The notes under the pieces were generated by a model. That model searched no databases and was not told the DNA's origin. It saw only the letters and a program-made list of their open reading frames with translations. Below are positions 10,578-25,264 of a DNA stretch of 42,284 nucleotides, piece after piece (positions within the stretch are counted from its first letter, which is position 1; the number at the start of each line of letters is the position of its first letter). The DNA comes from a virus (Duplodnaviria; Heunggongvirae; Uroviricota; Caudoviricetes): the IMG/VR virus record IMGVR_UViG_2675903409_000014; one strand, written 5' to 3'. Made by a program: the position numbers and the translations under genes.

Positions 10578-11000
10578 ATGGCGAAACCTTTTACTCCCGA
10601 ACAGCGGGAAGAACTGAAGACGCGAATTGTGGAACTCGTGCATCAGGACGGTCGGGTCACGATTCGGCAGTTGTCAGATGAAACAGGTATCAGTCGTGCG
10701 TCTGTCGGTCGCTTATGCATAGAACTGGTCGCAAGTGGTGATGTATATAATTCTGGCTACGGCTTATTCCCGTCTGAACAGGCTCGCAAGGACTGGCAAA
10801 GCGCCCGCAAAAAACTCTCGAGAGTAAAGGTGAGGAAACCGGTTGTTGTTGATCCGGACCTTATCTGGTCATTACCTGACGGAGAAATACGCCGCTACGA
10901 CAGGCGCCTGAATATAATCTGTCGCGAGTGCCGGAAGAGCGAAGCTATGCAGCGTGTACTGGCTTTCTATCAGGGTAATTTTCAGGAGGCGATACTGTGA
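10578..11000 (+). CDS. Hypothetical nin-region protein at the ydaW position (paralog of 14496..14912)
   Basis: 140 aa; SD aggagg 6 nt upstream of ATG; C-terminal approx 90 aa nearly identical to the second copy (GDVYNSGYGLFPSEQARKDW...RRYDRR.NIICRECRKSE). Confidence 0.7.
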   Translation: MAKPFTPEQREELKTRIVELVHQDGRVTIRQLSDETGISRASVGRLCIELVASGDVYNSGYGLFPSEQARKDWQSARKKLSRVKVRKPVVVDPDLIWSLPDGEIRRYDRRLNIICRECRKSEAMQRVLAFYQGNFQEAIL

Positions 11001-11414
11001 ATGAAATTAGCTATCAGGCTTCAATTACCGCTGGCATTCGCATCAAAGGAGAGGAGCATGGAAATAAAACCAGAAGATGAGTTAAGCAATATCGTTTTAT
11101 TTCCGGTAAAAGAGGATGACCCTCGTAATCAGGTTAATTTTCTTTATGAGCCATCGGAAAGACCATATTGCCATCACGCCTCTGTACGGGTTGACGAAAA
11201 AGAGCGTCAGGTCCGCTGTAAAATCTGCGGTGCGGTTGTGGAGCCGTTTGACTGGATGCTCTCTGTGGCAAAAAGAGAAACCAGACTGGCAGATGATGTA
11301 AGGCTATTGCGCCAGGAGGAACAGGAAAGGCGGAGAAATATAGAAAAGCTGATACAGATTGAGCGTAACGCGAAAGCGCGGATACGCAGGGCGACAAAAT
11401 CCAGAACTGAATAA
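11001..11414 (+). CDS. Hypothetical zinc-ribbon protein
   Basis: 137-aa ORF; CHH...RCKICG cysteine motif; alternative start at 11058 (MEIKPEDEL) with SD aaggagaggag. Confidence 0.55.
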   Translation: MKLAIRLQLPLAFASKERSMEIKPEDELSNIVLFPVKEDDPRNQVNFLYEPSERPYCHHASVRVDEKERQVRCKICGAVVEPFDWMLSVAKRETRLADDVRLLRQEEQERRRNIEKLIQIERNAKARIRRATKSRTE

Positions 11415-11561
11415 TTAAATTTAGCACTGTTAAAAATTTAATCCTTAACCGGAGGGATTTCTGCACCCTCAAATCATCAGGAGACCACCCGAAAGGGCGG
11501 GGAGCAGTCACACATCTGTTTCCGATAGCCCCGTTCTAATGCTACACTCTTTGATATTTTT

Positions 11562-12248
11562 ATGACCCCAATAAACATATTTATGACAGTTGCTGATTTC
11601 AAACGGCCCAAATTGGAGCTCCCAAACGGGGCAAACAAACTACTACTGCACTCTTGCTGTGCTCCATGTTCCGGTGAGGTGATGGAGGCGCTTCAGGCCT
11701 CGGGAATCGACTACACCATCTTTTTCTACAACCCGAACATTCATCCTCAGAAAGAGTATTTAATTCGTAAGGATGAGAATATTCGCTTTGCTGAACAACA
11801 CGGCGTGCCGTTTATTGATGCTGATTACGACACAGACAACTGGTTTGAACGAGCCAAAGGAATGGAATGGGAGCCCGAACGAGGGATCCGTTGCACCATG
11901 TGTTTTGACATGCGTTTTGAGCGGACAGCGCTGTACGCCGCTGAAAATGGTTTCAGTGTGATCAGCAGTTCACTGGGCATTTCACGCTGGAAAAATATGC
12001 AGCAGGTTAACGACTGTGGGCGGCGAGCCGTCGCGCATTATCCGGGCATGGTGTACTGGGATTATAACTGGCGCAAGCAGGGCGGCTCGTCCCGTATGAT
12101 TGAAATCAGCAAGCGCGAAAAATTCTATCAGCAGGAATATTGTGGCTGTGTGTATTCTCTGCGCGATACCAATCTACACCGCAAATCTCAGGGACGCCCT
12201 CTTATCAAAATTGGTCAACTCCACTACGGTAAAGAAGAGAAGGAGTGA
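11562..12248 (+). CDS. QueH/DUF208-like protein (epoxyqueuosine reductase family)
   Basis: 228 aa with [19 protein letters not shown] and QEYCGCVYS motifs recalled as hallmarks of DUF208/QueH. Confidence 0.7.
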
Positions 12249-12270
12249 TTTTATGGGGCACCTTTCTGAT

Positions 12271-12520
12271 NNNNNNNNNNNNNNNNNNNNNNNNNNNNNN
12301 NNNNNNNNNNNNNNNNNNNNNNNNNNNNNNNNNNNNNNNNNNNNNNNNNNNNNNNNNNNNNNNNNNNNNNNNNNNNNNNNNNNNNNNNNNNNNNNNNNNN
12401 NNNNNNNNNNNNNNNNNNNNNNNNNNNNNNNNNNNNNNNNNNNNNNNNNNNNNNNNNNNNNNNNNNNNNNNNNNNNNNNNNNNNNNNNNNNNNNNNNNNN
12501 NNNNNNNNNNNNNNNNNNNN
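12271..12520. other. Undetermined sequence (N-run) after QueH-like gene
   Basis: 250 N. Confidence 1.
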
Positions 12521-12696
12521 AGTGACGGCACTGGTAACGAGGAAAGACCTCTGTGAGGTACGAATCCGAACCGGCCAGACGGAGGTCGCTGTCTTCGTAG
12601 ACTACGAATCCAGGAAGTAAGAGTGACCGGGCGGGGAGCTGATCCCATCCCCGCCCACCTCTGATGTGTCAGGCATCCTCAACGCACCCGCACTTA

Positions 12697-12869: not shown

Positions 12870-13157
12870 ATGAAAATCGAAGAATTGCGTGAAATTTTTA
12901 GTGAAAATGGCCTCTATGCTGTGCGCGTTGAGAATGGAGCGATTGTCAGCCATTGCCGCATTAGATGTTTGCAATCTCAACAAAGGAAGAGCGGTGCTGT
13001 GTTATTTTATTTTTGTAATGGACTTCTGACGGACGGTTTTATTTTGCGTGAGGACGAATTTGTCACATCATTACGGGTTTTGAAAGAGATTGGTTTTAAG
13101 GCTGGTTTTCTGCTTTTGCTGAAGAATAAACTCATCTACAATCTTGAGCAGGATTGA
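12870..13157 (+). CDS. Hypothetical protein
   Basis: 95-aa ORF with SD ggaagga 8 nt upstream; upstream TTGATT-16-TAGAAT promoter-like elements. Confidence 0.5.
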   Translation: MKIEELREIFSENGLYAVRVENGAIVSHCRIRCLQSQQRKSGAVLFYFCNGLLTDGFILREDEFVTSLRVLKEIGFKAGFLLLLKNKLIYNLEQD

Positions 13158-13195
13158 ACTCCTGCTGTGTAACACCGTGCCACCGGAGAAAGCCG

Positions 13196-13444
13196 ATGGC
13201 ACATATACAACTGGTCAAACAAACCTCTTCCGGATTACTTCTCCCGGCGACGCCGGAGAGTTGCGATTTTCTGCATCAAATCAAAATAGGTGAGTGGATA
13301 CACGCAGACTTTAAGCGTGTGTGTAACTACGCATTCCACAAGCGTTTTTTCAAACTCCTGCAACTGGGTTTCGATTACTGGACTCCGGTCGGTGGGGCGA
13401 TCACGCCTCGCGAACGAAAACTGGTGTCCGGTTTCGTTGATTAC
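13196..13444 (+). CDS. nin-region protein, partial copy (3' part masked by N-run), paralog of 18863..19462
   Basis: MAHIQLVKQTSSGLLLPATPESCDFLHQIKIGEWIHADFKRV...; about 97 percent nt identity to 18863-19111. Confidence 0.55.
13196..13444 (+). repeat. Direct repeat copy A (about 249 bp visible, truncated by N-run)
   Basis: About 8 mismatches in 249 nt versus 18863-19111. Confidence 0.8.
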
Positions 13445-13694
13445 NNNNNNNNNNNNNNNNNNNNNNNNNNNNNNNNNNNNNNNNNNNNNNNNNNNNNNNN
13501 NNNNNNNNNNNNNNNNNNNNNNNNNNNNNNNNNNNNNNNNNNNNNNNNNNNNNNNNNNNNNNNNNNNNNNNNNNNNNNNNNNNNNNNNNNNNNNNNNNNN
13601 NNNNNNNNNNNNNNNNNNNNNNNNNNNNNNNNNNNNNNNNNNNNNNNNNNNNNNNNNNNNNNNNNNNNNNNNNNNNNNNNNNNNNNNNNNNNNN
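13445..13694. other. Undetermined sequence (N-run) inside nin-region repeat gene copy A
   Basis: 250 N. Confidence 1.
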
Positions 13695-13718
13695 AATTTT
13701 TACCGGGAGGAAATTTTT

Positions 13719-14480
13719 ATGGAGACTGTTTTTGACGCACTGAAAGCAATGGGAAAAGCCACATCCATAGAACTTGCTGCGCGACTTGATATCAGTCGTG
13801 AAGAAGTGCTGAACGAACTATGGGAACTGAAAAAAGCTGGTTTCGTTGATAAAAGCGCGTACACCTGGCGTGTGGCTGATAACAACGTTCAGCAGGAACA
13901 GCCAATGCAGGCAGAACTGCCGGAAGAAACCACCACGGCAACTGTAGTGAAAATCTCAGAGTGCGATTTAACCGCGACGATTGAACAACGCGGACCACAA
14001 ACGGCGGATGAACTGGCTACGCTGTTCGGTACAACATCCCGCAAAGTTGCTTCAACGCTGGCAATGGCAATCAGCAAAGGACGCCTGATTCGCGTAAACC
14101 AGAACAGTAAATTTCGTTACTGCATGCCGGGCGATAATTTACCAGCAGAGCCGAAAGCTGCATCGGTAGCGGAAACTGATGGTAAAGCCTTTCCTCAGCC
14201 AGCCGGTGTTGCGTTACCAGTACAGGAAGCGGCAACACAGGAAGATATTAAAACAGAAACTGTGGCGGACATTGTGCAGTCGCTGCCATCGTTTACTGAA
14301 ACGCAAGCGGATGACCTAGTTTTACCATCGCTGCATATGGCAAACCGCGAACTGCGTCGGGCGAAAAATCATGTCCAGAAGTGGGAGCGAGTCTGCGCCG
14401 CGCTGCGGGAGCTGAACAAGCACCGGGATATTGTCCGACAGATTGTCGATTCCTCCAGTCGTATTGTGTCGGAAAAGTGA
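13719..14480 (+). CDS. Hypothetical protein, probable winged-helix N-terminus and acidic linker
   Basis: 253 aa [45 protein letters not shown]...; SD gggagg upstream; first codon right after N-run. Confidence 0.65.
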
Positions 14481-14495
14481 TTGCCGGAGGCGCTT

Positions 14496-14912
14496 ATGGC
14501 AAAAGTTTTTACACAGGAAGAGCGTGAAAAAATTAAGGAGCAGGTTGTTGAGTTGGTACGCCAGAGTGGGCGCGAGACGTTAAGGCAACTGGAGGCCAAG
14601 ACAGGTGCGACAAGATATCTGATGAGCATTCTTGCCAGAGAGTTGGTTGCCAGTGGCGATGTATACAACTCTGGCTATGGGTTATTCCCGTCTGAACAGG
14701 CTCGTAAGGATTGGAAAAACGCCCGCAAAAAACTATCCAGGGCAAAGGTGAAAAAAACGGTTGTGGTTGATCCTGACCTTATCTGGTCATTACCAGACGG
14801 AGAAATACGCCGCTATGACAGGCGTCAGAACATAATCTGTCGCGAGTGCCGGAAGAGTGAAGTTATGAAACGTGTACTGGCATTTTATCAAGGAAATCTT
14901 CGGTATTTATAG
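14496..14912 (+). CDS. Hypothetical nin-region protein, second paralog of 10578..11000
   Basis: MAKVFTQEEREKIKEQVVELVRQSGRETLRQLE...; SD ggagg upstream of ATG at 14496 (track ORF starts at TTG 14481). Confidence 0.7.
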   Translation: MAKVFTQEEREKIKEQVVELVRQSGRETLRQLEAKTGATRYLMSILARELVASGDVYNSGYGLFPSEQARKDWKNARKKLSRAKVKKTVVVDPDLIWSLPDGEIRRYDRRQNIICRECRKSEVMKRVLAFYQGNLRYL

Positions 14913-15050
14913 ACGTTACTAGATCAAAGAGCATTAGTTCATATGTAAATTGACATTTTTCTGGCACAGGGGAGAGCTAGCGTGGTTGTCCGCTTTGTGC
15001 CAATAGCGGACATTGCTGGCTCATGGTATGTTAGTTTAAGGAGGCAGGTT

Positions 15051-16073
15051 ATGCCCTGTATTTCGCTGTGGTATAATAGTTGCGCAATTGATACAAGGGA
15101 GCGTTACATCGTGAAAATTGTTTTCGAGGTTAATGGAAAGAAAGTTCCACTAAAATCTTTAAAATACATAAGCAAAAAAGATCAACTCGAAGTAATGAAA
15201 AACTGGTTCTTTGAAAACTTTGAAGATCCGGCAAATGCTTGTCCGTATGAAAGTAGAGAAGGTGGCTATGCTTACATATATGGCGGGCCGTATGATGCGA
15301 GCGAAGAACTACAATCCATCTTCGGTCAATATGTTAAATCTGAGTATATTGAGGAATTAGTAGATGAATTACAAACACAATGTTTTGACTGGTCTGGAAA
15401 CTCAAATAATATAGATGATTGGTACGATGATGATATCTACGACGCTGTAACGTCTTCCGGTAATCCGTATTTAAAATTCATTGATAATATCGATAAAATA
15501 AAAAAACTTGCAAAAGATAAAACTGAACAACAGCAAAAAAACCACTTGCTTAGTTTGCTCTACACGAATGTTATTACAGCTTTGGAAACGCTTTATGTTG
15601 AGCTATTCATTAATTCTATAGAGAAAGATGATGTCTACATAGCCAATTGTATAGAAAAAGGTAAGACTGAATTTAAAGTAAGCAAAGATATTGCTGCGTT
15701 GCCTTTCAAGGGTGAACCCATCGAGAAAATTAGGGGAGAGCTAATCAGGTCAATCAAGGAACACTTGATCAGTGCAAGCTGGCATAGCACTAAAAAGGTA
15801 ATCGACCGCTATGAAGCTACATTCGATATAAAAGTACAAAAAGACTGTCCGATAGAAGCTATTGAATTGGCAACCCTCAATCGAAATCACTTAGTGCATC
15901 GTGGTGGAAAGGATAAAGAAGGGAACCTCGTAGTGATTACAGACCAGGATCTTGAAACGCTGATTGAAAATGCATCGAACCTGGCAATTATGCTCTACAA
16001 CAGTTTAAATGTAGCAACGAATAAAACCACCATTTTGCAACCAGATGACAAACCGTTCATTCATGAATTTTAA
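15051..16073 (+). CDS. Uncharacterized protein A of A+T-rich cassette; C-terminal HEPN-like Rx4H motif
   Basis: Strong SD taaggagg 6-7 nt before ATG 15051; alternative GTG 15111 preceded by TGgTATAAT and aagggag; A+T-rich; motif LNRNHLVHRG. Confidence 0.65.
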   Translation: MPCISLWYNSCAIDTRERYIVKIVFEVNGKKVPLKSLKYISKKDQLEVMKNWFFENFEDPANACPYESREGGYAYIYGGPYDASEELQSIFGQYVKSEYIEELVDELQTQCFDWSGNSNNIDDWYDDDIYDAVTSSGNPYLKFIDNIDKIKKLAKDKTEQQQKNHLLSLLYTNVITALETLYVELFINSIEKDDVYIANCIEKGKTEFKVSKDIAALPFKGEPIEKIRGELIRSIKEHLISASWHSTKKVIDRYEATFDIKVQKDCPIEAIELATLNRNHLVHRGGKDKEGNLVVITDQDLETLIENASNLAIMLYNSLNVATNKTTILQPDDKPFIHEF

Positions 16074-16088
16074 TAGCGCAGGTCATAC

Positions 16089-17090
16089 ATGGATATTCGC
16101 ACACGAAAGACAAAATTTTTAGAGTCGTTAGATTCAACTGAAGTGATACGCAAAGCAGTAAGTCTCGCTATAGATTGCATTATTGATAATCATAATAGTA
16201 ATGAAGATACCCCCTTAGTTATTACCAGCTATGATGATCTCTGTAGAATCCAGGTGCTAAATTATGTACAGGAGTTTTGCGAAGCTGCATTCCCTGATAT
16301 GGATGAATATTACTTTAGTCCTAACATACTTCGCATCAACGGCAAGACTAGTGAAGAAGCTTGTATTAACTTAATTAAACTCTTAAGAAGTACAAAAGGC
16401 ATGCTATTCTGGTCCGATGCCCCATCGTGGTTCGCTAGCCTCCCCGACGGATTATTCCATGTTGTTAACATTGATCAAAAAATCGTTACTCGCGGCCTTA
16501 ATAAGAAAAACTCTAAGCCGACAATAATCAATAAAGATTACAGTGTAGATACACTACTATCAGAGCTATTTTTGAATGGCGCACACATGGAGCAACCCAA
16601 CGTACACAACGTTTCTGAGGGAAACATGAAGTTCTATGATGAATGCCATGCTGGATTAATCAGACCAATACCCGCTCCAATAGGCGCGTCATACGATGAA
16701 GAGATCACAATTAATTCTCCAGATTGGCAAAAGCTCGCGTGTGTAGCTTTACGCCGCTATCAGTCGAAGGAATGTCATGACGGAATGCAATGGGATACAA
16801 CCGATCATGGTTGGACTGATGTAATCGCGTATCCATTCGTCGAAGAAATACAATCAATGGATAATAGTGGTTATCGACAATGTTTAGTTGGGCTGGTCAC
16901 AATAAACAATTCAAATGCAAATTCTCCGTACCTATCTACCGTTTGGATACATCCATTTTATCGCAGGAGAGGGTTATTAAGTAAGTTATGGCCAAAATTA
17001 CAAGAGTTATATGGAAGTAACTTCGAAATTGAGCGACCTAATGAAAATATGAAAGCATTTCTGAAAAGTGCGAAACACGCAGATTACTAA
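16089..17090 (+). CDS. Uncharacterized protein B of A+T-rich cassette; C-terminal GNAT-like motif
   Basis: 333-aa ORF 15 nt after gene A; VWIHPFYRRRGLLSKLWPKL resembles GNAT acetyl-CoA motif A. Confidence 0.7.
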   Translation: MDIRTRKTKFLESLDSTEVIRKAVSLAIDCIIDNHNSNEDTPLVITSYDDLCRIQVLNYVQEFCEAAFPDMDEYYFSPNILRINGKTSEEACINLIKLLRSTKGMLFWSDAPSWFASLPDGLFHVVNIDQKIVTRGLNKKNSKPTIINKDYSVDTLLSELFLNGAHMEQPNVHNVSEGNMKFYDECHAGLIRPIPAPIGASYDEEITINSPDWQKLACVALRRYQSKECHDGMQWDTTDHGWTDVIAYPFVEEIQSMDNSGYRQCLVGLVTINNSNANSPYLSTVWIHPFYRRRGLLSKLWPKLQELYGSNFEIERPNENMKAFLKSAKHADY

Positions 17091-17642
17091 TTTATGAATC
17101 AGTCTGTGGAGTTAGGGTTGGTGTGAACAAGTAGGGTAAGAGCCTCAACGTGATGCTATGCCGACCTGCTCCCTGAGAATTCACACAGAAGGCTGCTAGC
17201 AATGTCTGCAGATCGCTCAAAGCGGACTAAAATGTTGGCTTGTTTCTGACTTAGAGCATTTAAGGAAGTGCTGGTGGTGACTGGTTGTTGTGTTCCATTT
17301 CTACAGAATAAAATCACAGAAACTATACCCAATAGTTGTATTGAATCACTGACGAGACAGCCTCATATTTATCAGGACTGGTGTGCGTCTAATACAGGGG
17401 GTTGTCGTGCTGGTTCTCAAATGTGCGCTGGCTATTGCGGCTGTAATGGCAATTTATTGTCTTGCTGTTGTTCTTATGGAGCGGCTTTCTGATTGATTAC
17501 ATACTGGCTAGAAAAAAGGTGTTACCTTGGTTTATCTTTGTCCGGCAAGGTGCGCTCATTAATCTTAAGTAAATTTATTGCTCAAGTATTCAGATTACTT
17601 CTTATGGTTGAAGTCTCCTGTCAATGTAGAACCAATATATTT

Positions 17643-17681
17643 ACAAAAATGAGACCCGTCGGGGATAGCCCTGCCGGGTCT
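17643..17681 (-). terminator. Rho-independent terminator of the YeaR-like gene
   Basis: Minus-strand hairpin AGACCCG...CGGGTCT followed by CATTTTTG, just past the stop at 17711. Confidence 0.55.
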
Positions 17682-17710
17682 GACTGTTAAAGCATTTTTA
17701 ATATGATCAT

Positions 17711-18049
17711 CTATTTTTTGGTGCTATAGACTTTTTCGCCCGAAAAGTCTGGAGCGACCCAAAAGTTAATATTAAACTGAGCATCATCGCTTAGTTCAAC
17801 ACGGTGCCAGTATTGTGGTGGGCTTGTTGCAAAAGCGCCAGCATTAATGACTACTTTTATCTCCGGTTCAGTAGCATTCTCATCAGTAAAACCATAATAT
17901 GTTACAGTGCCTTCCATTACGCACAACTGCCCAAAAACACCTGCTGCTGTATTATGATGTGTTAATAACGCTGAAGGTACGTTCTCTTTTGTGAAGAACG
18001 GAGTTGAGCGTTTGATTACCCAATCTTTAGGAATTCTCTTGTGTGTCAT
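17711..18049 (-). CDS. YeaR-like DUF1971 (TehB-related cupin-like) protein
   Basis: KRSTPFFTKENVPSALLTHH...VMEGTVTYYGFTDENATEPE...FNINFWVAPD parallels recalled YeaR; SD ggagg before MTHKRIP start. Confidence 0.7.
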   Translation of the reverse strand: MTHKRIPKDWVIKRSTPFFTKENVPSALLTHHNTAAGVFGQLCVMEGTVTYYGFTDENATEPEIKVVINAGAFATSPPQYWHRVELSDDAQFNINFWVAPDFSGEKVYSTKK

Positions 18050-18862
18050 AACCACCTCCTCCAAAACATGCATTAAAAATGCATCTTTTGGAGGGTTATG
18101 TCAAGCTGTTATGAAACACATAATTGATATGTTGATTAGAGGAGAAGATAGAATAAATATGGTTGTTTTTCGTATAACTATTTGTTTTACTTTTAGTTTA
18201 TGCATTCTGTGTGTTAGGAATAAGTTATTAAAGTTTAATCAAAAAATCTCGATGTAGTCCACATAGATTACTGTTACTGAACCTTATTGTGTGTATTAGT
18301 TGTGTTCTGAAATTTCAGCTTAATTATTTATGATGTATTTTTTAACGATAAATATTTTCCCAGGATACCTTTACTGTGTATATAAATAAATTATATACGC
18401 ATAAATAATGTAAAGGCGTCCTTTTAGATATATCTTATCAAATGTTAATGACTTGAGTGGGAAATATGATTCCAGCAACTTATCATGTGGCTACTTTATA
18501 AAAATAATGCCCATATAAAACAACAAGCGAAAAGGATTACGGATAAAAAAGGAGCGAGATGTGCGAACTTGTTATTTTCCATGTTTAACCACCTTAAATA
18601 ATTGATGATGACGGGATGATTGCATCTGTAATGCTTTTATTGAAATGTTATGATAAAAAAGAACTTTTGCATAACATTAAAATGTAATTTATCTAATCGT
18701 TTTTAATAATAAGTGTCGTATTTCTATCCTTGTACCAGCTATTTGATATGTAGTGTTTGTTCATGCTATGTGGGGCTTTACACCATAGCCAGTTTATTTA
18801 TACTTTATTCGTCAGCCTGAACAACTGGCATCTGCTGCGCTGCGCCATCGAGAGATTGAGAA

Positions 18863-19111
18863 ATGGCGCATATACAACTGGTCAAACAAACCTCTTCTGG
18901 TTTACTTCTCCCGGCGACGCCGGAGAGTTGCGATTTTCTGCATCAAATCAAAATAGGTGAGTGGATACACGCAGACTTTAAGCGTGTGCGTAACTACGCA
19001 TTCCACAAGCGTTTTTTCAAACTCCTGCAACTGGGATTCGATTACTGGACTCCGGTCGGTGGGGCGATCACGCCTCGCGAACGAGAACTGCTGTCTGGTT
19101 TCGTTGATTAC
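18863..19111 (+). repeat. Direct repeat copy B
   Basis: Matches 13196-13444 at about 97 percent identity. Confidence 0.8.
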
Positions 19112-19462
19112 CTGTGCGAATCAGTTGGTCGGGAACACACGCCAGCCCTGAGTGATGCCGCAGAGCAATACCTTAACACCGTTGCGACTCGTAGAACCCG
19201 GGATACGGCGTTGCTAAAGTCGTTTGAGGCTTTCCGCGAGTGGGTAACCATTCAGGCCGGATTTTACACCGAGCATATTTATCCGGACGGTAGCCGTGGG
19301 CGTCGGGCAAAATCCATCGCTTTTGCGAATATGGACGAAGTCGAGTTTCAGCAGGTTTATAAATCTGTACTGAATGTGCTGTGGAACTGGATTCTGTTCC
19401 GTAAATTCTCCTCTCAGGAGGAAGTTGAAAATGTGGCCGCACAACTACTGGAGTTTGCGTAA
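18863..19462 (+). CDS. nin-region protein, full-length copy (YbcN-position; family uncertain)
   Basis: 199 aa; immediately upstream of YbcO-like gene; N-terminal 83 codons duplicated at 13196. Confidence 0.75.
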   Translation: MAHIQLVKQTSSGLLLPATPESCDFLHQIKIGEWIHADFKRVRNYAFHKRFFKLLQLGFDYWTPVGGAITPRERELLSGFVDYLCESVGREHTPALSDAAEQYLNTVATRRTRDTALLKSFEAFREWVTIQAGFYTEHIYPDGSRGRRAKSIAFANMDEVEFQQVYKSVLNVLWNWILFRKFSSQEEVENVAAQLLEFA

Positions 19463-19752
19463 TGGTGAATTTACGTAAAGCGGCTAAAGGCCAGATGTGC
19501 CAGATCAGAATCCCTGGCTACTGCAATCACAATCCCGAAACCTCTGTGCTGGCGCATTACAGGCTGGCGGGGACGTGCGGAACAGCGACAAAACCACATG
19601 ATATGCAGGCGGCGATAGCCTGTAGCTCATGCCACGATCTAATCGACGGGCGGGTAAAAACCAGCGATTACACCAAAGAAGAATTGCGCCTGATGCATGC
19701 TGAAGGGGTTTTTCGCACACAAGAAATCTGGAGAAAGAAAGGTCATTTATGA
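19462..19752 (+). CDS. YbcO-like DUF1364 Cys-rich putative nuclease
   Basis: 96 aa MVNLRKAAKGQMCQIRIPGYCNHNPETSVLAHYRLAGTCGTATKPHDMQAAIACSSCHDLIDGR...; pattern as recalled for DLP12 YbcO. Confidence 0.75.
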   Translation: MVNLRKAAKGQMCQIRIPGYCNHNPETSVLAHYRLAGTCGTATKPHDMQAAIACSSCHDLIDGRVKTSDYTKEELRLMHAEGVFRTQEIWRKKGHL

Positions 19753-20273
19753 TTTACCCAACGAATACAGNNNNNNNNNNNNNNNNNNNNNNNNNNNNNN
19801 NNNNNNNNNNNNNNNNNNNNNNNNNNNNNNNNNNNNNNNNNNNNNNNNNNNNNNNNNNNNNNNNNNNNNNNNNNNNNNNNNNNNNNNNNNNNNNNNNNNN
19901 NNNNNNNNNNNNNNNNNNNNNNNNNNNNNNNNNNNNNNNNNNNNNNNNNNNNNNNNNNNNNNNNNNNNNNNNNNNNNNNNNNNNNNNNNNNNNNNNNNNN
20001 NNNNNNNNNNNNNNNNNNNNTGATGCAGAGGCGTTATGTATTGATCGAGTCATAAGTGAGGTGCTGGCAGAGCATCCAGGATTGATTTGCATTCTCCGGC
20101 AACGCTATGAAGGGCGGGGGATGACTAAGCGCAAAATGGCTGAATTGCTAAATGATGCACACCCAGAGTGGTGTTTTAGCACATGCGAAAAACGGATTGC
20201 TAATTGGTTAGCTGTTGCTGAGTATGCCCTATATATTCCCATGCGTGAATCATTTGCTGAGAAAATGGCTTGA
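19749..20273 (+). CDS. Late-gene antiterminator Q-like (interrupted by N-run 19771-20020)
   Basis: Position immediately upstream of late leader and terminator; ATGA overlap with previous stop; C-terminus ...QRYEGRGMTKRKMAELLNDAHPEWCF...; family by position mainly. Confidence 0.6.
   Translation: MIYPTNTXXXXXXXXXXXXXXXXXXXXXXXXXXXXXXXXXXXXXXXXXXXXXXXXXXXXXXXXXXXXXXXXXXXXXXXXXXXXXXXXXXXXDAEALCIDRVISEVLAEHPGLICILRQRYEGRGMTKRKMAELLNDAHPEWCFSTCEKRIANWLAVAEYALYIPMRESFAEKMA
19771..20020. other. Undetermined sequence (N-run) inside Q-like gene
   Basis: 250 N. Confidence 1.
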
Positions 20274-20726: not shown

Positions 20727-21317
20727 GGGCTGGTTTATTGTATGCCAAATGATTATTAAAAAGGTTGTGTTAATAACAAGATCCGAAATAATATGCCTGC
20801 ATATTTTTATCTTGCTTATATTCTGCATATTGTGCATAGCAGGCTCATCCCTGCAATCAAAACTGTATGATGAGTATTTTTTGTTTTCCTTTTTTCCAGT
20901 CATCTGATGATGACCTGCTTCTTTTTAATCCGGATCGACATCAGTTTTTTAAGATAATTCCTGCGAGTTATATGCATAAATGCCACAAACTCCGCATTTT
21001 ATGTGGTTGGGAGTTGCCGGGCGCGCAGTGAGTTTGCTAAGAAAACTCCTGCATGGTGAATCCCCCTGTGCGGTGGGGTGATACCATTAACCTTTTCTGT
21101 CGCCGACAGGTATCACGAACATTTTGTTCACCGGGAGGCACCCGGCACCATGCACTTCAATAGATTCTCTCCACATTATGGATATTCTTTCAGAATATCC
21201 CACGCAGACTTTGTGTAAATGTTAACAAATGTGCGTTTTATTTGATCTGATTCGCTGTTTGAGCGTCCAAAACAACGGTATATATAATCCTTTACTATAT
21301 GACATATGTGAGGAAAA

Positions 21318-21746
21318 ATGGGTTTTCGTAGCGCATCAATTCTTACGTTGATTATTAGTGGGATTATTATCGGGTGCACTGATGCTGTATCGACAAATTA
21401 TCATGACCGTACATCATATTACTCCGATAAAGCAATAGAGACACAGTATGTGAGTTCATCTGAACGTACTTCTGATGTTAGTGAGGATATCCGTCTGTAT
21501 GCCCATCAAATCAAGAGCGCCATCGAAAAACAGTTCGGGGATGCGAGTAAGTATTCAGGAAAAGAGTGTACACTGAGAATGCATATGGCCCCGAATGGCC
21601 TTCTACTGGAGGTTAAAAGAGAAAGTGGAGACCTCGATTTATGTCGTGAAGCGATGAATGCGATAAAGAATGCTGATATACCTGCCCCCCCTTCGCCGGA
21701 AGTATATAAAGTATTTCAAAATGGGGTGCTGGATTTTAAACCCTGA
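21318..21746 (+). CDS. Lipoprotein with TolA C-terminal domain (TolA-III)-like fold, copy 1
   Basis: Signal peptide and lipobox IIGC; mature part YAHQIKSAIEKQFGDASKYSGKECTLRMHMAPNGLLLEVKRESGDLDLCREAMNAIKNADIPAPPSPEVYKVFQNGVLDFKP parallels recalled E. coli TolA C-terminus; TATATAAT about 25 nt upstream. Confidence 0.8.
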   Translation: MGFRSASILTLIISGIIIGCTDAVSTNYHDRTSYYSDKAIETQYVSSSERTSDVSEDIRLYAHQIKSAIEKQFGDASKYSGKECTLRMHMAPNGLLLEVKRESGDLDLCREAMNAIKNADIPAPPSPEVYKVFQNGVLDFKP

Positions 21747-21896: not shown

Positions 21897-22292
21897 GTGG
21901 GATTAAAGAAAATCGTTATGTTGACTTTTTGGGTCGGTTTTGTTGCGGGATGCACACCTTTACACCCTTCAGATTGCCACAAAACTACTGCTACAGGTAG
22001 TTGCAGTTCAGGACGCTGGGATGATCAGGATGAATGGGGGGCGCAAGCGCGGGGAATCAGAGCTGCAATTAATGCCAAACTTGATGAGCCGCATAACTGG
22101 AAAGGGAAAAAATGCAGGTTGCATATGGAATTCTCTCAGGATGGCACGGCGTTAAAAATATCTACCAGTAACGGTGATAAAGCCTATTGCGAAGCGATAA
22201 AGTCCGCAGCTCATAAAGCCAAATTTCCGGCCTTCAACAATCCGGAAGTCTACAGAGATTTTCAGAAATCTGGCTTTGACATGCGAGGTTAG
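21897..22292 (+). CDS. Lipoprotein with TolA-III-like domain, copy 2 (diverged paralog)
   Basis: GTG start with SD gaggag; lipobox VAGC; ...GKKCRLHMEFSQDGTALKISTSNGDKAYCEAIKSAAHKAKFPAFNNPEVYRDFQ follows the same TolA-III pattern. Confidence 0.75.
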   Translation: MGLKKIVMLTFWVGFVAGCTPLHPSDCHKTTATGSCSSGRWDDQDEWGAQARGIRAAINAKLDEPHNWKGKKCRLHMEFSQDGTALKISTSNGDKAYCEAIKSAAHKAKFPAFNNPEVYRDFQKSGFDMRG

Positions 22293-23669: not shown

Positions 23670-23806
23670 AATCTTAACTACAATATGATTCATTTTGATG
23701 ATTGTTTCATAAGGAACAGTGAAGTAAGATCTAAGAGGAGTTAAATTTTATACAGTATAATCATAATATTGCAGCAAGGTGGTTATAATTGAAAGAATAT
23801 TTAGAT

Positions 23807-25264
23807 ATGAATACATCTCATGTAAGAGTTGTTACTCATATGTGTGGGTTCCTGGTTTGGCTCTATAGTCTTTCAATGTTGCCACCAATGGTTGTAGCAT
23901 TGTTTTATAAAGAAAAAAGCCTGTTCGTTTTCTTTATAACTTTCGTTATATTTTTTTGCATTGGTGGCGGAGCGTGGTATACAACTAAGAAATCTGGCAT
24001 TCAATTACGTACCCGTGATGGGTTTATTATAATTGTAATGTTTTGGATTTTGTTTTCTGTTATTAGTGCATTCCCTTTATGGATTGACTCAGAACTTAAT
24101 TTAACGTTCATTGATGCTCTGTTTGAAGGGGTTTCTGGAATAACAACAACAGGAGCAACTGTAATTGATGATGTTAGTTCATTACCTCGGGCATATTTGT
24201 ACTATCGGTCACAGTTAAATTTTATAGGTGGTTTAGGAGTTATTGTTCTGGCGGTTGCAGTATTGCCATTATTGGGTATTGGTGGTGCAAAGCTTTATCA
24301 GTCAGAAATGCCGGGGCCATTTAAGGATGACAAACTCACTCCCCGCCTGGCCGATACGTCACGGACACTGTGGATAACTTATTCTTTATTAGGTATTGCT
24401 TGTATTGTCTGTTATAGACTTGCAGGAATGCCTTTGTTTGATGCTATTTGTCACGGGATTTCCACAGTTTCGCTTGGTGGTTTCTCAACTCATAGCGAGA
24501 GTATCGGATATTTTAATAACTATTTGGTTGAGCTGGTGGCTGGTTCTTTTTCCCTGCTATCGGCTTTCAACTTCACTCTTTGGTATATTGTTATTAGCAG
24601 AAAAACGATAAAACCTTTAATCAGAGATATTGAACTTCGTTTCTTTCTGTTAATAGCCTTAGGGGTGATCATTGTTACCTCTTTCCAGGTCTGGCATATA
24701 GGTATGTATGACTTGCATGGAAGTTTTATTCATTCGTTTTTTCTTGCCAGCTCCATGCTCACTGATAATGGTTTAGCTACGCAGGATTATGCAAACTGGC
24801 CCACGCACACGATAGTGTTTTTGCTGTTGTCAAGTTTCTTTGGGGGATGTATAGGTTCAACCTGTGGTGGAATTAAGTCACTTCGATTTCTTATACTTTT
24901 CAAACAAAGCAAACACGAGATAAATCAGCTTTCTCATCCCAGAGCGTTGTTGAGTGTAAATGTAGGAGGGAAGATAGTTACAGATCGTGTAATGAGGTCT
25001 GTATGGAGTTTCTTTTTTCTTTATACTCTCTTCACGGTGTTTTTTATACTGGTGTTAAATGGTATGGGATATGATTTTCTTACATCATTTGCAACAGTGG
25101 CTGCATGTATTAATAATATGGGATTAGGTTTTGGGGCTACTGCATCGTCATTCGGAGTGCTTAATGACATTGCAAAATATTTAATGTGCATAGCTATGAT
25201 TCTTGGTCGCCTTGAAATTTATCCTGTTATTATATTGTTTTCAGGTTTTTTTTGGCGCTCCTAA
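23807..25264 (+). CDS. trkG: TrkG potassium uptake protein
   Basis: 485 aa from MNTSHVRVVTHMCGFLVWLYSLSMLPPMVVALFYKEKSLFVFF...; multi-pass membrane protein; A+T-rich. Confidence 0.9.
   Translation: MNTSHVRVVTHMCGFLVWLYSLSMLPPMVVALFYKEKSLFVFFITFVIFFCIGGGAWYTTKKSGIQLRTRDGFIIIVMFWILFSVISAFPLWIDSELNLTFIDALFEGVSGITTTGATVIDDVSSLPRAYLYYRSQLNFIGGLGVIVLAVAVLPLLGIGGAKLYQSEMPGPFKDDKLTPRLADTSRTLWITYSLLGIACIVCYRLAGMPLFDAICHGISTVSLGGFSTHSESIGYFNNYLVELVAGSFSLLSAFNFTLWYIVISRKTIKPLIRDIELRFFLLIALGVIIVTSFQVWHIGMYDLHGSFIHSFFLASSMLTDNGLATQDYANWPTHTIVFLLLSSFFGGCIGSTCGGIKSLRFLILFKQSKHEINQLSHPRALLSVNVGGKIVTDRVMRSVWSFFFLYTLFTVFFILVLNGMGYDFLTSFATVAACINNMGLGFGATASSFGVLNDIAKYLMCIAMILGRLEIYPVIILFSGFFWRS

Follow-up and report, generated by a model that had tools for sequence, protein, structure and literature searches.

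The viral DNA analysed here (hereafter the window, the whole stretch of 42,284 nt from IMG/VR virus record IMGVR_UViG_2675903409_000014) is a Rac-type prophage that carries a gene of the QueH family. We consider it likely that this gene encodes a functional QueH, that it was captured as a single gene into a slot of Rac/Qin-type prophages, and that it makes queuosine (Q) maturation in the host independent of B12. The features on which this reading is built are listed in Table 1.

Table 1 Features of the queH region of the prophage (positions in the window)
Feature	Position	Strand	Basis and remarks
DUF977/Ren-like gene	10578..11000	+	PF06163, 116.5 bits; phrog_142; upstream edge of the cargo slot
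Zinc-ribbon and long basic helix protein	11058..11414	+	118 aa; phrog_1621 (unknown function); outside the queH module
Mobile single-gene queH module	11512..12270	+	Mosaic boundaries across prophages
Candidate extended -10 element TGCTACACT	11540..11548	+	Conserved motif, consensus level
queH coding sequence	11583..12248	+	221 aa; PF02677, 7lc5 alignment, AF2 fold, PGAP start and name
Hok/Sok type I toxin-antitoxin locus	12271..12620	+	sok/mok and the 5' end of hokD lie under the N-run 12271-12520

Identification of the queH gene

Translation of the window ORFs gave a 228-aa reading frame at 11562-12248 (+) with the motif QEYCGCVYS, from which the sequence-only reading had recognised a QueH (DUF208) protein. 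The motif was confirmed and the identity was borne out by the profile search that had been proposed as a check: PF02677 (QueH, formerly DUF208; curated cutoff 23.5 bits) matched in the Pfam scan with 220.6 bits (E 1.9e-65) over profile positions 1-174 of 175. The in-frame ATG at 11562, which yields the 228-aa version, lies upstream of a second ATG at 11583. The latter is likely the true start, giving 221 aa, since it is the one used by PGAP and since chromosomal orthologues from other genera align from there.

The identical protein in E. coli FDAARGOS_944 is listed by PGAP/RefSeq as 'epoxyqueuosine reductase QueH' (WP_012421537.1, 221 aa), and the identification as such was thus already known. 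Phage annotations miss it: in PHROGs v4 the product is phrog_3217 (459 bits), classed as 'unknown function', while Pfam and PGAP both name QueH. The NCBIfam scan returned no model match for the QueH protein; as the library apparently has no dedicated QueH model, this result is no evidence against membership in the family. Judged by sequence and by predicted fold, the window gene is a canonical, intact QueH family member in which all the features examined at both levels are present, and we predict with high confidence that its product is an active epoxyqueuosine reductase.

Conserved cysteines and predicted fold

Cysteines were compared in an alignment of the window protein, 85 diverse family representatives (from separate 50%-identity clusters) and Thermotoga maritima QueH. 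All seven family cysteines were kept in window QueH, namely C25, C26 and C29 (CCAPC), C104 and C107 (RCTMC), and C187 and C189 (YCGC), and each of them was conserved in 81-98% of the 64-84 diverse representatives aligned at its position. In T. maritima QueH they pair, in the same order, with C9, C10, D13, C87, C90, C169 and C171. The position of Asp13 is occupied by Cys (CCxPC) in window QueH and in most of the diverse family members (69 of 72), and on this alignment the odd one out is T. maritima rather than the window protein. A D13N mutant of T. maritima QueH has been crystallised (PDB 9DCO).

The window protein aligned colinearly with T. maritima QueH 7lc5 (E 5e-22, 177 residues, ~30% identity). 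The AF2 model of window QueH had a pLDDT of 75.7 and a pTM of 0.76, and its top five Foldseek matches in the PDB were all T. maritima QueH (7lc5, 7lc7 and 9deu first), with TM scores of 0.79-0.80 and an rmsd of 3.1-4.0 Å; PP-loop/adenine-nucleotide-alpha-hydrolase enzymes ranked far lower. The protein thus shares with the structurally characterised T. maritima enzyme (PDB 7LC5, 7LC7, 9DEU) the Pfam family, the predicted fold and the CC, RCxxC and YCGC cysteines, whereas it differs in the Cys of CCAPC that replaces Asp13 and in ~20 additional residues at either end.

Prevalence and coexistence with queG

A megablast search with the coding sequence found queH in 995 of 5426 complete E. coli genomes (~18%), at 90-100% identity. 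The copies were nearly always chromosomal and always annotated as QueH, and at least 80% of the gene was covered in 985 of the 995. In addition, queH was carried by at least 189 IMG/VR viral contigs and by the isolated phage HannyBb; other tblastn matches (short unannotated metagenomic records or records of 280-380 kb) were left out of the evidence for QueH in phages. Given these counts, and the RefSeq name, the description of a phage copy as unexpected in the sequence-only reading was overstated. Two of its other statements held: the gene is prophage-borne, and QueG is the usual enzyme of E. coli, queG being present in all 5426 complete genomes.

Because queG was found in every genome, QueH is always a second, redundant enzyme. 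By family assignment, QueG and QueH share the reaction and the tRNA substrates, and both occur in every queH-positive genome. In contrast to QueH, the E. coli QueG (379 aa) needs cobalamin and is encoded on the core chromosome, and the two proteins are non-homologous. No paper on prophage-borne QueH in E. coli was found in a literature search outside which the primary QueH literature (Zallot et al. 2017, Li et al. 2021) lay.

Boundaries of the module and neighbouring genes

The queH gene is a single-gene module with discrete mosaic boundaries, present in some and absent from other related prophages. Its left edge, taken as the start of the queH-containing HSP, fell at window position 11512, just upstream of queH, in 63 of 80 IMG/VR loci, and most matches in E. 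coli genomes began at query position 512. Homology reached back through the zinc-ribbon and DUF977 genes in 10 of the 80 loci. The right edge lies between a few and ~100 nt past the queH stop codon: downstream of it, the alignment separated two allele groups, which diverged either immediately or ~100 nt later.

The small zinc-ribbon ORF reported upstream of queH is present (11001-11414; called by PGAP from 11058), and the label is reasonable: C38, H40, C54 and C57 (C-x-H...C-x2-C) were invariant among 29 homologues, which also shared the conserved helix LRxEExxRRxNIEKLIQIERNAKARIRR. The AF2 model of this protein consisted of a two-strand beta-ribbon (43-61) and a long helix (63-117). The Pfam TFIIB zinc-ribbon match scored 21.1 bits, under the 29-bit cutoff, and a fold search of the PDB gave nothing significant, the best match being the TFIIB N-terminal domain (E 0.2). 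The arrangement of zinc-ribbon gene and queH (at least 80% query coverage) was found in only two complete genomes, FDAARGOS_943 and FDAARGOS_944, and the zinc-ribbon gene occurs elsewhere in lambdoid phages, for instance near ea22 in Stx2a phages. A functional partnership with queH was rejected on account of this rare adjacency, in complete genomes as in IMG/VR loci, and of the module boundary between the two genes; the zinc-ribbon gene is an incidental mosaic neighbour.

Nor did the N-run at 12271-12520 turn out to hide partner genes of QueH, as had been suggested. In the nearly identical locus L001, the equivalent segment is sok/mok/hokD, with the sok RNA (Rfam RF01794, 117 bits) at 13306-13481 and hokD at 13476-13631. 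The readable ORF of the window at 12522-12620 is the C-terminus of HokD, and its sequence, TALVTRKDLCEVRIRTGQTEVAVFVDYESRK, is identical to HokD of L001.

A perfect 10-bp inverted repeat, TGCCTGAGGC-N5-GCCTCAGGCA, lies ~80 nt past the queH stop codon (~13308-13335 in L001, masked in the window). Several contexts have kept this hairpin, and it falls where the sok/hok model of Rfam begins to match. O157:H7 Z1832 keeps the repeat, yet its annotation shows no hokD in the 6 kb that follow queH. A generic scan called no terminator-like site between the queH stop codon and hokD, and the own terminator by which a moron is recognised was thus absent from that scan.

Candidate promoter

The candidate extended -10 element lies within a leader of ~70 nt that travels with queH, at a distance of 35 nt from the ATG. 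TTCCGA at 11520-11525, with a 17-nt spacer to the -10 hexamer, is a weak -35 candidate. The -10-like element was kept in all prophage contexts compared, and chromosomal queH of Scandinavium, Kluyvera, Enterobacter and Symbiopectobacterium was preceded at equal distance by TGCTACA(C/A)T, amid flanking DNA that was unalignable. Across 79 loci, TGnTAnnnT occurred at -45 to -31 in 17, as against 1.2% of background windows. Since the motif is shared with chromosomal orthologues amid unalignable DNA, these comparisons suggest that queH was captured together with its native promoter, and that it may be expressible in a repressed lysogen. The site was not among the calls of the generic promoter scan, and no obvious Shine-Dalgarno sequence was seen ahead of either queH start codon.

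The host prophage and its cargo slot

The window was recognised as a Rac-type prophage from its integrase, RecT, RecE, SieB, RalA sRNA and TrkG. The RalA sRNA, located at 1557-1735 (Rfam RF02694, 225 bits), is the antitoxin in RalR/RalA, a type I system typical of the Rac prophage. The TrkH-family potassium transporter TrkG, a known cargo of the Rac prophage, was located at 23789-25264 and confirms the window to be a Rac-type element; this element is more complete than the K-12 version.

The position of queH was compared in eight annotated contexts, namely the Rac- and Qin-like prophages of CE10, O157:H7 Z1832, 200177, KY208, CREC_5 and FDAARGOS_943/944, and phage HannyBb. In these, queH occupied one fixed slot of the rightward early strand. 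The replication genes came first and a DUF977/Ren-like gene next, and the latter preceded queH in every context examined. The slot ended at hokD or at cargo inserted ahead of it. Two other E. coli genomes had such insertions between queH and hokD: an NgoMIV-type restriction-modification pair (L002, 6872-8882), and a hypothetical gene with a Kiwa KwaB-like gene (L008, 6896-8535). The queH-hokD junction is a defence-cargo hotspot. The queH module resembles the morons and other cargo of the lambdoid ren-nin region (relBE-hokD of Qin, restriction-modification, Kiwa-like genes) in being an insert of one or a few genes with sharp mosaic boundaries in a slot beside hokD; it differs in that its cargo is a housekeeping tRNA-modification enzyme, whereas the others are toxin, defence or virulence genes.

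No tRNA genes were found in the window, and the tRNAs of related prophages are Ile, Arg, Thr and Gly, none of which is a Q substrate; a link between queH and prophage tRNA genes was therefore rejected.

Further features of the same prophage were recorded. The early-right region at 13154-20273 looks partly duplicated: a 5' fragment of DUF1367 (13154 to ~13450) meets an N-run that masks the junction, and after it follow DUF1627, DUF977, a two-gene cargo, DUF1971 (minus strand) and a complete DUF1367-DUF1364-DUF1133 series. The second block was common to 11 complete genomes (99.8-99.9%), and FDAARGOS_944 passes directly from DUF1367 to DUF1364. The second DUF977 gene (14481-14912) is followed by unannotated ORFs of 363 and 333 aa (to 17090), with weak matches to HEPN/RES N-terminal domain 1 and to GNAT, respectively, both below cutoff; PADLOC gave no match for this pair in the 14481-17090 block. 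As its slot equals that of queH after the first DUF977 gene, these two ORFs are candidates for a toxin or defence function as a pair. Immediately ahead of the lysis genes lie an STnc100 sRNA match (21021-21207) and, after it, ORFs at 21318-21746 and 21897-22292 that each have a TolA C-terminal domain; these ORFs are possible TolA mimics encoded by the phage.

Origin and selection

The origin of the gene was traced in a scan of one genome per species. DUF977/YdaT-type prophage genes stood beside queH only in Escherichia loci (E. coli, and E. albertii at 99%). By protein identity, the next QueH relatives were those of Scandinavium (92%), Kluyvera (91%), Enterobacter (89-90%) and Symbiopectobacterium (87%), followed by Erwinia, Pantoea, Serratia, Photorhabdus and Providencia (79-86%). 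The family is unusually conserved, and even QueH of Sphingomonas and Stenotrophomonas was 75-80% identical. The sequence-only reading had also mentioned another redox role, for which there is no support, the protein being 79-92% identical to chromosomal Enterobacterales QueH with every conserved cysteine kept.

Pfam scans of the queH loci of Scandinavium and three Enterobacter showed ordinary cellular neighbours (short-chain dehydrogenase, metallo-beta-lactamase-fold, GH28 glycosidase, isocitrate dehydrogenase, chorismate mutase, GNAT and EAL), and no recognisable homologues of the window prophage genes were found at the non-Escherichia queH loci of the species scan. The neighbourhood of queH was syntenic in Erwiniaceae and Pectobacteriaceae. 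The chromosomal proteins are equal in length to the prophage protein, and the nearest of them share the -10-like motif ~35 nt upstream of the start; they are encoded among ordinary cellular genes, whereas queH of Escherichia lies in lambdoid prophages.

Six prophage queH alleles differed by dS of 0.015-0.44 and dN of at most 0.016, and dN/dS was 0.02-0.04 for every appreciably diverged pair. These ratios indicate that strong purifying selection has kept queH functional while it resided in prophages.

Proposed cobalamin-independent queuosine maturation

The following course of events would account for these observations. The gene would have come from an enterobacterial chromosome, captured as a module of one gene and probably together with a promoter of its own. 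It would have landed in lambdoid prophages of the Rac/Qin type, in the cargo slot of the early-right region that is bounded by the DUF977/Ren-like gene and hokD. The lysogen would express QueH from the conserved -10-like element, and QueH, by family assignment an iron-sulfur and cobalamin-independent enzyme, would reduce epoxyqueuosine (oQ) to Q in four host tRNAs (Asn, Asp, His and Tyr), at their position 34. The reaction of QueG would thereby be duplicated without cobalamin, and Q maturation would be freed from external B12.

E. coli is unable to make the corrin ring of cobalamin de novo. It is because QueG is cobamide-dependent and the cell makes no corrin that a prophage QueH would release Q maturation from B12. 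The reduction of oQ in E. coli was shown early on to require cobamide (Frey et al. 1988, as cited in PMC4646009), QueG is listed among the cobamide-dependent enzymes of E. coli (PMC11841063), and the pathway supplying the substrate (tgt, queA and the preQ1 genes) is established in this species (PMC5372724). A comparable case is Staphylococcus aureus, in which two redundant reductases with different cofactors occur in one cell and the redundancy of QueG and QueH has been read as an adaptation to cofactor availability (PMC13443448). Both enzymes are chromosomal in S. aureus, whereas in E. coli the second one is carried by temperate phages, in ~18% of strains.

Whether B12 independence is itself the selected benefit we hold to be about an even question. 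Corrinoids are usually present in the gut, which counts against a benefit under B12 limitation. The chromosomes of many Enterobacterales have queH, and the gene may be kept for some general advantage and not for B12 limitation in particular. Deletion of queG left growth unchanged in a cobamide-supplied E. coli metE-deletion strain (PMC11841063), and for this reason the fitness value of Q over oQ is in doubt.

Alternative explanations

Were QueH to serve the phage itself, it would be transcribed with the early-right (pR-type) operon after induction and would supply fully matured Q34 tRNAs for the translation of NAU-rich late genes. The gene does lie past the replication genes and before the nin/Q region, on the strand of rightward early genes, the isolated phage HannyBb has it, Q is reported to modulate the translation of NAU codons (PMC10570037), and NAU codons make up a fraction of 0.73 of the Asn/Asp/His/Tyr codons in late and 0.60 in early window genes, compared with 0.50 in a sample of five MG1655 genes. 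This NAU enrichment follows the low G+C of the late region, however, and is hence non-specific, and no difference between oQ and Q in decoding was found in the literature covered. The K-12 versions of the Rac and Qin prophages are defective. Many carriers are of the Rac/Qin type, yet queH is under strong purifying selection, and the conserved motif of its putative own promoter argues for expression independent of the lytic programme. We regard service to the phage as unlikely; it is compatible with Q maturation made independent of B12 in the lysogen, and the two are not exclusive. Neutral hitch-hiking or decay of a cargo without current function, a reading to which the redundancy with queG in every genome and the mosaic, partly degraded state of the host prophages (IS elements and pseudogenes in L089) would lend themselves, appears most improbable: dN/dS stays at 0.02-0.04 over dS of up to 0.44, 985 of the 995 copies are at least 80% complete, all conserved cysteines are kept, and it is this purifying selection, by which queH was kept functional in prophages, that disfavours it.

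The slot is rich in conflict cargo (hokD, the NgoMIV-type pair in L002 and the Kiwa KwaB-like gene in L008), and the equivalent window slot after the second DUF977 gene holds the HEPN/RES-NTD-like and GNAT-like pair. QueH might accordingly take part in conflict between phage and host or between bacteria, the state of Q34 altering sensitivity to anticodon nucleases or biasing translation against superinfecting phages. A part of this kind is very improbable, as neither QueH nor the zinc-ribbon protein had a PADLOC match, no partner gene travels with queH, and the protein is an unmodified housekeeping orthologue, 79-92% identical to its chromosomal relatives and with all catalytic features kept; moreover, we know of no nuclease that tells oQ from Q. 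Phages are also known to use genes of the Q pathway for DNA modification, and we weighed a role of QueH in which phage DNA, not tRNA, receives the 7-deazaguanine modification. Such systems comprise DpdA plus FolE, QueD, QueE and QueC. DpdA/TGT-like proteins, QueC, QueD, QueE and FolE were absent from the eight annotated contexts and from the Pfam-scanned window ORFs, no DNA base of the epoxyqueuosine type is known to us, and we give this role next to no chance. A wider proposal, that prophage QueH is a lysogenic-conversion or conflict factor which frees Q34 maturation from cobalamin and thereby reprograms NAU/NAC decoding in B12-poor niches, seems to us distinctly unlikely. If it were true, the lysogen or the NAU-rich late genes of the phage could measurably benefit, or the susceptibility of tRNAs to anticodon nucleases could be altered, and variation of the host epitranscriptome from strain to strain of E. 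coli would have temperate phages as its vectors.

Significance for E. coli

Under the preferred reading, that of a prophage QueH maturing host Q without B12, ~18% of complete E. coli genomes would carry a second, B12-independent queuosine route by way of Rac/Qin-type prophages. Laboratory results from K-12 on the accumulation of oQ without B12 may then fail to hold for many natural isolates. The aspect of prophage QueH that has gone unreported is that it may free the host from B12 for the step from oQ to Q. What this analysis adds is the testable hypothesis that B12-independent Q maturation is a strain-variable trait delivered by phages, and this bears on the fitness value of the oQ-to-Q step.
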